A stretch of DNA of 64,000 nt from a bacterium. Lineage in GTDB: Bacteria; UBA8248. Below the pieces are notes generated by a model. The model saw only the letters and a list, made by a program, of their open reading frames with translations, was not told the DNA's origin and ran no database searches. The stretch's first letter is position 1. Each line of letters begins with the position of its first letter. Location of the stretch: positions 310,829-374,828 of the forward strand of contig CBDBZY010000031.1 in assembly GCA_965213685.1 (NCBI GenBank), written 5' to 3'. Position numbers and translations under genes: made by a program. Of this stretch, positions 15,226 to 50,731 are shown piece after piece.

Positions 15226-16264
15226 GAGCTTCCCTCCAGGTTGCATGGACAGGCGATTATTGACCGAAGCCCCCCTTGCGGGGAGCGTCTTTAGCACCGG
15301 ATGTGTTCCGCCAGCCTTCGGCAGCGACGCCCCGCCCGGGGGGAAGGGCCTCCATCCTTTCGGGGACGCCCGCACCGCATCAGAAGGCGTATGTCATCGC
15401 AAGGCCGACCGCCCGGAACGAGACGCCTGCGTCTCCATCGCGCAGGCAACCCATTCTCCGTTCGGTGCGATGCGGGAGTCTTGGCTGCGCAACTGGCCGC
15501 AAGGCGCGCCGTCGGGGAGATTGTCCGGGTTCGCGGGACGCTGAGATCGCCCAGGCGGAAGCCGGTGCCGACGCGAGCGGGAAAGCCGCCGGCACGCCCC
15601 ACCTCCCCATCACCCATGCGCGTCTCATCGTACCATTCCCGCCGTCGTTGGAACGCTCGGGAAAAATCGCTCAAGCGGGATGCCGGACGCCCCGGCCGCC
15701 CGCGCATCTGTGCATCGCGCCTTGCCCTGCTTTTCGCCCATCTTCACACAGCATCGCGTTCCGGGCAACGCCGCCCCGGACTCTCATCCGTCCCCCCTCG
15801 GGAAAGGGGGGCGGGGGCGCATCTCGCCCGAGGCCGTCGATGAGAAACCCTGCCGTATCGGCGATATATGGACAGTATACTAGAGGATGGCGGGGGCGTG
15901 ATACAAGAGAATTCTTTCAACGCCCCCCCTCCCCCCGGGCGTCGAGGCGCGGCACCCGGTTGCGGCAGGGGGAGCGCAGCTTGAGGCGTCCGATGAATTC
16001 CTGCTCCGTCAGCGCAACTTCGTATCGCTCGGGGTCGCGTTTCAAGACCTCGAATACACCGTCCCGCCCGGCGAAGCGGTGCTTGAAATCCCTGGGAGTT
16101 TCTACCGACCAGACGTCGCGCAGGAGAGCTGGCGCGATCTCGAAGCCTCATCTCATGGGGGAGGATCGTTCCGCCCGCCCGCGCGCTTCCAGGGTCGTGA
16201 AAAATCCGCCCGACAAGGGGGGCGGGTGGGGGCAACCCCCCTCCTCCCGGCCCGGCGATGGTGC

Positions 16265-16870
16265 TCATGCGGGCGGGGGCACGCTGCTTCCGTAAATCTT
16301 CTCGGATTGCGCCTGCGTCACGGCGTTTCCCTCCGGGTCGTGCAGGGGGTAGGCGCCCAGGGTGCGCATGAACACCTGCATGCCGTAGTGAAGCGCCGTC
16401 ATCGAGCCGATCTCCATGATCTGGGCTTCGGTGAAATGCCGCTTGCCCTCGTCGTAGAAGGCCTTGTCGAGCCGGGCCGCGTCGCGATACATCCAGTAGG
16501 CGTAGCGGAGCGCCCACTTCTCGGCGTCGGTGAACTGCGGGTCGTTCTCGAAATCGCCGCAGGCGGCCTCGATGCGCGCCTCCGTCAGCCCCTCTTTTTT
16601 CGCCTTCTCCGAGCGCAGGTTCGCGAAGTAGGTGTCCCCCGCCGTTCTGGCGAGCTGGATGCGCACCATCTCCTTGAGACGGTGATCCACCCCGCCCTGG
16701 GCGTGGGAGCGGTGCATCGCGTCGTGCAGGGCGGCGGCGTAGCCGGGCGCATGGGCCATGACGCGAGAGAACAGCGCGTCGGGCGCCCCCGTCTCGGCGG
16801 TGCGCTCCATGACGCGCTCCCAGCCTTTTTCTTCGATCTCCTCGGGGTCGAGCGGTTCGATTATCGGCAT
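16265..16870 (-). CDS. AhpD/carboxymuconolactone decarboxylase-like protein lacking CxxC/U
   Basis: VDHRLKEMVRIQLARTAGDTYF...FTDAEKWALRY...HFTEAQIMEIG. Clear paralogue of the upstream gene. Confidence 0.8.
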   Translation of the reverse strand: MPIIEPLDPEEIEEKGWERVMERTAETGAPDALFSRVMAHAPGYAAALHDAMHRSHAQGGVDHRLKEMVRIQLARTAGDTYFANLRSEKAKKEGLTEARIEAACGDFENDPQFTDAEKWALRYAYWMYRDAARLDKAFYDEGKRHFTEAQIMEIGSMTALHYGMQVFMRTLGAYPLHDPEGNAVTQAQSEKIYGSSVPPPA

Positions 16871-17523
16871 GGCGCCTCCTCGTCTCCGCCCGCCTCCGTC
16901 GCGCGGGCGAGCGGGCCGCTGCGGTGCGAGACAGGACAATCGCCATAGATGCGGCGCGACTCCTCCTGGCTCACCAGCCGACCGTCTGGGGAGAACATGG
17001 GGTAGAAGTCGAGCGTGCGGAAAAAGGTGTGGTACCCCACGTTGAAGCCGATGAACGAGCCGAGCTCCACGATCTCCGCGTCCGAGTAATGCGCCTGGAG
17101 GCGCGCGTAGAAGGCCGCGTCGATTTTCTCCGGCTCCGAATCCATGAGCTCGCTGTACTCGAGCGCCAGCTTCTCGGCCTCGGAGAAGTGCACGCTTTCG
17201 CGCCAGTTGTCGATGCCCTCGTCGATCATCTCCTCGGTCAGCCCCGCCTGCTTCGCCGAAGCAGATCGCACGTTGCCTCAGTAGTTGCAGAAGGCGCGGC
17301 GGGAGAGCTGCACGCGGATGATCTCCTTGAGCCTGTGGTCGATGGCGCCGGTGTTGAACACCGCCCCCCAGGCCAGGTACATGGATTTCGCCAAATCCTC
17401 GTTGTGGCCCTGCATGGCGTGAAAGGCCGGGTCGGGCGCGCGGTGCTTGAGCGCCTTGTTGACGAAGGGGGCCAGCTTCGTCTTCTTCAGCCCCTCGATG
17501 TCAAGCATGGTGATGTTGGACAT
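16861..17523 (-). CDS. AhpD/CMD-like selenoprotein (CxxU), read-through of TGA at 17278-17280
   Basis: ORFs 17278..17613 and 16861..17271 are in the same frame: IDHRLKEIIRVQLSRRAF-C-N-Y-TGA-GNVRS...FSEAEKLALEY...HYSDAEIVEL. A SECIS-like hairpin follows the TGA. Confidence 0.85.
17248..17264 (-). promoter_or_regulatory. Putative bacterial SECIS hairpin of the AhpD-like gene
   Basis: TGA-GGCAACGTGCGAT-CTGCTTC-GGC-GAAGCAG: 7-bp stem with a G-starting loop about 21 nt after the TGA. Confidence 0.7.
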
Positions 17524-17575
17524 GGTCCCGTCTCCTGAAAAAGGATGGATGCATGACGGACAAGGCGCGGCCGCC

Positions 17576-18937
17576 TCACGCGCCGCCCTCCGCCTGCAGG
17601 CGGCGCAGGGCATCGCCTAGGACGGACGCCACGCGCCCGGCCTCCTCCTCGGTAATGACCAGGGGCGGGCTGATGGTGACGGTGTTCGCCGGGCCTGCGG
17701 CGATGCCGGCGTTCTTGCCGAAAATCACGCCCCCCTCCTTCGCGTAGGCTAGCACCCGGGAGGTGGCCGCCGTGGAGAGGGGCGCGCCGTCCTCCTCTAT
17801 CAGCTCCACCCCCCAGATGAGTCCCACCCCCCGCACGTCGCCCACGCAGGGGATGTCCGAGAGGCTCCGCAGGAGCCCGCCCAGATGGGCGCCCACCTCC
17901 CGCGCGCGGGCGGGTAGCGCCTCCGCCGTCAGGATGTCGAGGTTCTTGAGCGCAGCCGCGCAGGCGGCGGGGTGTCCCCCGTAGGTGTTCACCTGGAGGA
18001 AGCCCGGCTCGCCCTCCGCGTTGATCGCCTCGAATATCTCCTCGGTGGCGGCCGTCGCGCCGATGGGCAGGTAGGCGCTGCTCAGCCCCTTGGCCAGCGT
18101 CACGATGTCCGGCTCGATCCCGTAGAGGTCGGAGGCGAAAAGCGCGCCCGTGCGGCCGAAGCCGGTGATGACCTCATCGGCGATGAACAGCACGCCGTGG
18201 CTGCGGCACACCGCGCGCATCCGCCTCAGGTAGTCCGCGGGCGGCGGTATCACCCCCCCTCCGCCGATGACGGGCTCCGCGATGAACGCCGCCACCGTCT
18301 CCGGGTCCTCGTAGCGGATGACCTCGTCGAGCTCCTCCGCGCACCGCCGGGCGAGCTCCTCCTCGGTGGCCGCCCCGCTGCGGTAGAAGTAGGGGGCGCT
18401 CACGTGAATCACCCCCGGCAGAAGCGGCTCGAACGCCGCCCGCCGCAGCGTCTGGCCGCTCAGGCTCGCCCCGCCGATGGTGGCGCCGTGATACCCCTGG
18501 TGGCGGGCGATGATCTTGTACCGCCGCCCGCCGCCCAGCCGCCCGTGGACGCGGGCCAGCTTGATCGCGGTGTCCACCGCCTCCGACCCGGAGTTCACGA
18601 ACCAGACGCGATCCACCCCCTCCGGCAGCAGGGAGGCCAGCCGGTCGGCGAGCCGCGCCGCAGGCGGGTTCGCCTGCGTCAGGGGGTAGTAGGCCAGCTC
18701 CCGCATCTGCTCGTAGGCCGCCCGGGCCACCTCCTCGCGCCCGTAGCCGATGTTCACGCACCAAAGCCCCGCCATGGCGTCGACGTACTCCCGCCCGGCG
18801 GCGTCCCGTATGGTCGAGCCCCGCGCCCCGACCACGACGTCGAGCGGGTTCTCCTCCATCCCCGAATGGTTCATGAGCGGATGCCAGACGTGCGCCCTGT
18901 CCATCTCCCGCAGGGCTTCGGCTGTGGCCGGGTTCAT
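17576..18937 (-). CDS. Class III PLP-dependent aminotransferase (omega-amine type)
   Basis: Motifs DAMAGLWCVNIGYG, NSGSEA, YHGAT, AEPV, DEVITGFGRTG, AKGLSSAYLP and TYGGHP. Confidence 0.93.
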   Translation of the reverse strand: MNPATAEALREMDRAHVWHPLMNHSGMEENPLDVVVGARGSTIRDAAGREYVDAMAGLWCVNIGYGREEVARAAYEQMRELAYYPLTQANPPAARLADRLASLLPEGVDRVWFVNSGSEAVDTAIKLARVHGRLGGGRRYKIIARHQGYHGATIGGASLSGQTLRRAAFEPLLPGVIHVSAPYFYRSGAATEEELARRCAEELDEVIRYEDPETVAAFIAEPVIGGGGVIPPPADYLRRMRAVCRSHGVLFIADEVITGFGRTGALFASDLYGIEPDIVTLAKGLSSAYLPIGATAATEEIFEAINAEGEPGFLQVNTYGGHPAACAAALKNLDILTAEALPARAREVGAHLGGLLRSLSDIPCVGDVRGVGLIWGVELIEEDGAPLSTAATSRVLAYAKEGGVIFGKNAGIAAGPANTVTISPPLVITEEEAGRVASVLGDALRRLQAEGGA

Positions 18938-50645: not shown

Positions 50646-50731
50646 GCGGGCGTGGCGGAATTGGTAGACGCGTCAGGTTTAGGTCCTGGTGACTTATGGT
50701 CGTGGGGGTTCAAGTCCCTCCGCCCGCACCA
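50646..50731 (+). tRNA. tRNA-Leu(TAG)
   Basis: GCGGGCGTGGCGGAATTGGTAGACGC...loop TTTAGGT, long variable arm, GTTCAAGTCC...CCA. Confidence 0.96.

Follow-up and report, generated by a model that had tools for sequence, protein, structure and literature searches.

A selenocysteine-encoding AhpD-fold gene and its paralogue without redox residues form a conserved pair in diverse bacteria

The window, that is, the whole stretch of 64,000 nucleotides of bacterial DNA that was analysed, carries on its minus strand two consecutive genes of the AhpD/CMD fold. The first, A, contains an in-frame TGA, the reading of which as a genuine selenocysteine codon is strongly supported. The second, B, is a paralogue of A that, judging from its sequence, has lost the two redox residues and kept most of the active-site shell. 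The genetics of the pair makes a functional partnership between the two products very likely. As a whole, the data are best explained by a selenocysteine-active A and an inert B that would assemble into a hetero-oligomer with one selenol site per pair, and we regard this explanation as probable. The locus comprises the following features:

18937..17576, minus strand, class-III aminotransferase gene, ending 52 nt upstream of A
17531..17536, minus strand, AGGAGA, Shine-Dalgarno-like sequence for A, 7 nt before its ATG (read from the sequence)
16861..17523, minus strand, gene A, AhpD/CMD-fold selenoprotein (translation; Pfam CMD match)
17278..17280, minus strand, UGA selenocysteine codon, codon 82 of A (comparative evidence and Sec machinery in the genome)
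17248..17264, minus strand, SECIS-like hairpin with a 7-bp stem and a GGC loop (comparative data)
16875..16881, minus strand, GAGGAGG, Shine-Dalgarno-like sequence for B within the 3' end of A, 4 nt before the ATG of B (read from the sequence)
16265..16870, minus strand, gene B, AhpD/CMD-fold paralogue without redox residues (translation; Pfam CMD match)
16625..16636, minus strand, codons for D79-T-Y-F82 of B, the site equivalent to C-x-x-U of A (gap-free A/B alignment)
16206..16225, minus strand, terminator-like hairpin and T run 40 nt past the stop of B (consensus scan; a weak call, with 2 sites in the region against 1.3 expected)

Gene A runs from an ATG at 17523 to a TAA at 16863-16861 and encodes 220 aa with the TGA read through, whereas B, of 201 aa, runs from an ATG at 16870, 10 nt within the 3' end of A, to a TGA stop at 16267-16265. 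The original prediction had claimed an in-frame TGA in the context RRAF-C-N-Y-U-GNVRS, a 7-bp hairpin with a GGC loop about 21 nt past it, and an overlapping paralogue with D-T-Y-F at the CxxU site. All of these are present. The TGA at 17278-17280 is codon 82 of A and belongs to the redox motif C79-N-Y-U82; the hairpin lies at 17264-17248, its stem starting 13 nt and its loop 21 nt after the UGA; and the paralogue, which overlaps A by 10 nt, aligns with it at 35% identity over 194 residues with zero gaps (E 2e-42). Elsewhere in the window, a complete rRNA operon (5S, 23S, two tRNAs, 16S) occupies positions 3332-8865 of the minus strand, and further tRNA genes are found at 50646, 57542 and 58161.

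Orthologues of A were gathered in a scan of species representatives, with one genome per species (80 loci), and in a scan of metagenome contigs (80 more loci); removal of duplicates left 144 distinct A genes. The 80 species-representative loci carry the MAG labels Nitrospinota, Tectomicrobia, Rhodospirillales, Hyphomicrobiales, Burkholderiales, other Betaproteobacteria, Chloroflexota and Dehalococcoidia. All 144 genes have a TGA at the site of codon 82, with both flanking halves of the frame conserved, and none has a Cys codon there. Within this sampling of 144 genes, the A subfamily is obligately selenocysteine-containing. Among 41 related genomes, exactly one internal TGA was found in each of 29 A orthologues (45-100% identity to A), and in all 26 of the related-genome loci that were read it is codon 82, within C-[NS]-Y-U. 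Furthermore, the C-N-Y-U of A aligns with C-A-Y-C of the solved homologue PA0269, U82 corresponding to the second Cys; in the same alignment, the Glu of LIELV and the His of VNMH in PA0269 face E67 and R86 of A, respectively. A search with a profile of B against 1.84 billion cluster representatives returned 1461 relatives at E <= 0.001. Among the best 150 of these, 100 cover both redox positions, with C...C in 43 and D...F in 39; the C...C examples among distant relatives include CGYCSNVRS and CEYCGNQRS, which have CxYC at the Sec site. Two outcomes had been named in advance as grounds for giving up the selenocysteine reading, a TGA that is not conserved and a TGA that does not align with Cys. 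Neither was found, the conserved codon being aligned with the second Cys of CxYC both in PA0269 and in the 43 representatives.

The machinery for selenocysteine insertion is encoded in the window's own genome, as judged by matches to SelB (370 bits, cut-off 242), tRNA-Sec (78.6 bits, cut-off 47), SelA (502 bits), the gene of which adjoins selB, and SelD (172 bits, cut-off 125), the last match being split over three frames. The three reading-frame pieces of the SelD match (G000:C31:101342-102000) may reflect frameshifts, assembly errors or an unusual gene.

Public gene calls for A are either cut at the TGA, leaving fragments of 121-144 aa, or print W at this position (7 of the 21 sequences fetched), as might be expected if the TGA were a true stop, a nonsense mutation or a codon for another residue such as Trp. 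However, three of the seven W-printing database proteins are 92-97% identical to loci that have a TGA there, so that the W stems from gene calls reading TGA as Trp and not from another residue. Moreover, the genetic code is standard, since TGA ends gene B in the same operon of the window and A or B in many other loci.

The hairpin after the UGA is made up of CUGCUUC (17264-17258), the GGC loop (17257-17255) and GAAGCAG (17254-17248). Folded as a single sequence, the 69 nt after the UGA do no better than shuffles (z -0.92), a result that favours a codon without selenocysteine function, and the case for the hairpin is therefore a comparative one, which the window by itself would not make. In a set of 113 distinct 45-nt stretches, pairing is found in 98.2% of the stem cells, compared with 95.3 +/- 0.3 in shuffles, none of 500 of which reach the observed value, and with 28-63% in a control in which the partner strand was slid. 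Pair 18-32 covaries (CG 64, UA 39, UG 10, unpaired 0, in 113 sequences), and a second stem pair shows one change on both sides, from CG to UA; this covariation amounts to essentially one base pair among related sequences, in a stem that lies within coding sequence. At the covarying pair, the change is synonymous at Ser87 (UCU to UCC) and replaces Gln by Arg at residue 92. The GGC loop is invariant in all 113 distinct sequences. Third codon positions within the stem (GCU, UCG, AAG) are also invariant, whereas in the four codons immediately preceding it they change freely. Bacterial SECIS elements, as Zhang and Gladyshev reportedly laid down in 2005, are recognized by a hairpin soon after the UGA with a G in the apical loop, and the hairpin of A, close downstream and with G in its apical loop, agrees with this description. 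Overall, we read the TGA as selenocysteine because of its conservation, the conserved hairpin at the right distance, the full Sec machinery in the genome and the Cys found at the same place in relatives; a stop, a nonsense mutation or Trp at this codon appears extremely improbable. In the window's genome and its relatives there are, in addition, many more CMD-family matches with exactly one in-frame TGA (for example, G000:C25:36799-37047 and G000:C31:120532-120840), which suggests several other AhpD-like selenoprotein genes per genome.

Both proteins pass the cut-off of 23 bits for the Pfam CMD family (PF02627), A with 34.1 and B with 26.3 bits. By sequence, A matches AhpD-like structures, including PA0269 (E 3e-7) and Atu0492, among others. 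The AlphaFold model of B (pLDDT 92.9, pTM 0.90) has as its best PDB matches the Bmp8 debrominase, PA0269, 2prr and AhpD of D. radiodurans and S. pneumoniae, with a Foldseek probability of 1.00 for Bmp8, PA0269, 2prr, 6k40 and 6e8l. The all-helical AhpD fold is thus predicted for B by its model, and A would share it on the strength of the 35% gap-free identity between the two. TM scores of the B model, normalised by model length, are 0.52-0.73 against the solved AhpD-like proteins (2o4d, 2ijc, 2gmy, 2prr, 2oyo, 6k40, 6e8l). PA0269 of Pseudomonas aeruginosa and its kin, which are oligomeric, have the Glu ... C-x-Y-C helix motif in common with A. Unlike the solved proteins, which are homo-oligomers with CxxC in every chain, the pair described here has selenocysteine in one chain and no redox residues in the other.

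Assignment to a characterized subfamily proved less straightforward. The best NCBIfam match of both A and B is NF053654 (YciW-related (seleno)protein), a family that holds Sec and Cys forms; the scores of 65.2 bits for A and 38.2 bits for B are far below its cut-off of 310, and neither protein is therefore a member. The match to TIGR01926 (peroxidase-related enzyme) likewise stays below its cut-off (35.3 against 81.8 bits), no PcaC or gamma-carboxymuconolactone decarboxylase equivalog was among the NCBIfam families matched by A or B at E <= 0.01, and no curated NCBIfam model covering the A-B pair was found. The canonical AhpD motif CxxCxxxH is absent from A and B, both of which have Arg86 where PA0269 has His, four residues after the second Cys. 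Furthermore, a Pfam scan of the 4 window neighbours and of 23 neighbour ORFs of other loci contained no peroxiredoxin. Together, the replacement of His by Arg at the AhpD catalytic position and the lack of a peroxiredoxin among these neighbours argue against a canonical AhpD assignment. Over its full length, the B model is structurally closest to Bmp8 (6ohi, 6ohj; TM 0.69-0.75, 19-20% identity), which is also a weak sequence match of A (E 0.0018). Bmp8 has the AhpD fold and employs thiols in a reaction that is not peroxide reduction. However, it has neither Sec nor an inert partner, and the surroundings of the two genes in the window gave no hint of dehalogenation.

In 135 of the 144 cases, A is followed directly and on the same strand by B, and in 6 more the contig ends within 600 nt past A. 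Independent occurrence of the paralogues, which was to count against the original prediction, is therefore not what the genomes reveal. B is missing next to 3 A genes, namely the singletons L041 and L042 and, in L112, an additional A copy that follows B. L041 and L042 come from relatives of the same order and class, are single A-like genes of 186-189 aa with a TGA at codon 82 and 45-49% identity to A, and are sister to the A clade on the tree; they may represent the state before duplication. At L112, the second A-type gene (4285-4900) has its own TGA and hairpin, giving the order A-B-A'.

A phylogenetic tree built from 22 A, 22 B and 3 single sequences separates one B clade (100/100) from one A clade (94/91), the two being reciprocal. 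Branching within the A clade mirrors that within the B clade, as expected from a single old duplication followed by joint descent, and the B branches are longer. A database protein of 181 aa (P0048), which joins an A-like N-terminal third to a B-like remainder with the motif G-D-S-Y-F, falls between the A and B clades and may be a recombinant or an assembly chimera. Two betaproteobacterial-type MAG contigs, L085 and L102, have A and B that group with the Burkholderiales/Betaproteobacteria loci (60-61% identity to A of the window), so that the names of well-known pathogen species in their public titles look doubtful.

The loss of both redox residues, together with faster evolution (longer branches and a mean column identity of 55% in B compared with 70% in A) and a frameshift in the B copy of L098, might indicate that B is a redundant or decaying duplicate without a function of its own. 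The remaining evidence makes this very unlikely. Indeed, B is under purifying selection, as its median dN/dS is 0.141 (237 pairs), the value for A being 0.073 (253 pairs; 24 loci in all). An alignment of 65 B sequences from several phyla has thirteen invariant columns, and D79, Y81 and F82 each reach a conservation of 90% or more. In both families, the positions conserved to 90% or more include H63, K66, E67, R70, R75, Y81, R86 and S87, R86 being invariant in A as well as B. Moreover, B is retained beside A and even inside fused reading frames.

Such fused forms, A-linker-B, account for 13 of the 120 listed database relatives of A, in frames of 297-371 aa, each of which joins the post-UGA part of A, through a linker of about 40-90 residues, to an entire B with the motif G-D-x-[YHC]-F. 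At L135, where a fusion was read on the DNA, a single frame of 423 codons has the UGA at codon 82, then a Pro-, Ser- and Arg-rich linker of about 60 residues, and then B. On a tree of the B parts, the 13 fused forms make up two distinct clades, one of 2 members near the Nitrospinota-type sequences and one of 11 betaproteobacterial members, so that the change between split and fused states happened at least twice. No fused or full-length form of more than 385 aa came up when such proteins were searched for, which is weak evidence. The model of one fused database protein, P0007 (mean pLDDT 73.6, pTM 0.69), has a disordered linker (residues 105-149, pLDDT < 50); its gene call starts past the UGA, leaving the A part without roughly its first 90 residues, and the model gives no conclusion on the packing of the two halves. 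Two sets of apparent fusions were rejected. One was the flag on L075, dismissed after its spacer had been read, and the other comprised in-frame, single-TGA spacers of Burkholderiales loci, which turned out to have real stops and unrelated spacer sequence. The 219-nt spacer of one Burkholderiales locus (L078:2127-2348) contains a repeated unit, one frame of which reads PRLRHPPLPKGG about three times, and looks like an inserted repeat element.

Translational coupling of the two genes had also been proposed, and here the evidence is divided. In support, the overlap of stop and start seen in the window has counterparts, as ATGA or TAATG, in 20 of the 70 species-representative loci in which both genes were read; most of the others have the genes 1-50 nt apart. 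On the other hand, 20 loci of the same genus divide into 2 with the 10-nt overlap, 3 with a spacer of 2 nt and 15 with one of 9 nt, and spacers of 49-219 nt in Burkholderiales argue against coupling there. Coupling of A and B is thus plausible from the gene arrangement and not general.

Conserved neighbours were considered as a clue to function and rejected, since they differ between lineages. In the window they comprise the class-III aminotransferase, a dienelactone-hydrolase-like protein, a CoA-transferase III and AmtB, and in other loci FAA hydrolase, HMGL-like proteins, cupins and HpcH aldolase. Spurious long frames in GC-rich DNA had mimicked a cluster of 17 loci and a third paralogue upstream. 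In four loci of uncultured Alphaproteobacteria (L091, L095, L098 and L099), the pair is flanked by Sec genes, with selB and selA in divergent orientation upstream of A and selD on the downstream side; the distance from B to the start of selD is about 70-80 nt in three of these loci. These loci look like a compact island of Sec machinery and the A-B selenoprotein pair.

The idea of the original prediction that the motif-less paralogue is a working partner of A is supported at the genetic level, by co-occurrence and conserved gene order, by trees that mirror each other, by purifying selection and by fusions that fall in two clades. We propose that A is a cytoplasmic AhpD-fold oxidoreductase with Cys79 and selenocysteine 82 as its redox pair, the UGA being decoded by SelB and tRNA-Sec under the guidance of the hairpin 13 nt downstream. 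B would have arisen by an old duplication of the same gene, with the fold and most of the active-site shell retained, and would be incapable of thiol or selenol redox chemistry, as Asp and Phe replace Cys and Sec. Both would be translated from a common mRNA, on which the stop of A and the start of B overlap in some cases, and would form a hetero-oligomer built on the two-fold dimer of solved AhpD-like proteins, with one active and one inert subunit. The signals for Sec decoding, the conservation, the obligate linkage of the genes, the fusions and the selection on both are observed; the A-B contact, the stoichiometry, with one selenol site per pair, and the role of B as a scaffold or substrate-binding half are inferred. 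M. tuberculosis AhpD consists of two CMD-like halves, only one of which has CxxC, and would be an internal parallel to the A-B pair.

A physical complex of A and B is likely, given the obligate pairing, the mirrored clades, purifying selection, the stop/start overlap and the fusions, and a mixed oligomer would be the simplest physical reading of these genetics. AhpD-like proteins assemble mostly as hexamers of two-fold dimers, sometimes as trimers or dimers; the examples named in the passages of PMC3141380 consulted are all homo-oligomers. Fusion and tight linkage, however, are also known among enzymes whose only tie is a shared pathway. Accordingly, A could be a selenoprotein to which B is functionally tied with no shared complex, the two forming separate homo-oligomers and B serving in the same process as a non-redox enzyme, a binding protein or a regulator. 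Several observations lend themselves to such an arrangement. According to the same passages of PMC3141380, active sites in the known oligomers are structurally independent of the assembly, so that a partner subunit is not obviously needed for catalysis, and the CMD family also includes non-redox decarboxylases. In addition, the conserved charged shell of B itself (K66, E67, R70, R86) could serve a different reaction, and the fused forms have long linkers, including the disordered one of the P0007 model. Nevertheless, the trees of A and B mirror each other, co-occurrence and gene order are nearly total across phyla, fusions arose in two clades and, since the two are paralogues from a family in which like subunits meet through two-fold contacts, a mixed dimer would be the most economical result. 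Weighing these points, we consider partnership without a complex rather unlikely and the hetero-oligomer of active A and inert B the better explanation.

A more specific version of the hetero-oligomer model can be put forward only tentatively. The pair could be an obligate pseudo-symmetric AhpD-fold heterodimer with a single selenol site, in which the degenerate half provides for substrate binding or serves as a scaffold. Selenium would be indispensable to it, as no Cys orthologue occurs among the 144 genes, and this indispensability would imply a reaction that cysteine does poorly, for instance reductive dehalogenation of the Bmp8 or deiodinase type or a step in selenium/sulfur trafficking. 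The pair might also be the main client of the alphaproteobacterial Sec island. Taken together, this scenario is doubtful.

CxxU AhpD-like selenoproteins have been known since 2005 (PMC1088965, PMC2398784; review PMC13188914). As far as the passages compared go, the members described there (COG2128) resemble A in the CMD/AhpD fold, in Sec at the second redox position, in a bacterial SECIS straight after the UGA and in being split by annotation pipelines. However, the surveyed family has many Cys homologues (902 in the GOS data), whereas the A subfamily has none among 144 genes. The passages of the survey text compared (PMC1088965, PMC2398784) do not mention a cysteine-less paralogue beside, or fused to, a CxxU gene. 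Similarly, obligate pairing or fusion of a CxxU AhpD-like selenoprotein with a cysteine-less partner was not found in the full-text literature searched. What is added to the known CxxU AhpD kind is a subfamily that is obligately selenocysteine-containing as far as sampled, and its obligate pairing with a redox-dead paralogue.

The A-B subfamily spans Nitrospinota, Alpha- and Betaproteobacteria, Chloroflexota and other MAGs. In metagenomes, AhpD-like proteins rank, to our knowledge, with the most frequent bacterial selenoproteins, and we know of none with an established substrate. For annotators, the consequence is that the two halves of A should be joined and B named as its partner, and for experimenters, that A and B should be co-expressed. 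The pair offers a well-delimited, experimentally accessible example of a selenoenzyme accompanied by a pseudoenzyme, and one in which it can be asked whether pairing with an inert subunit is a means of building an oligomer with fewer selenocysteine insertions.
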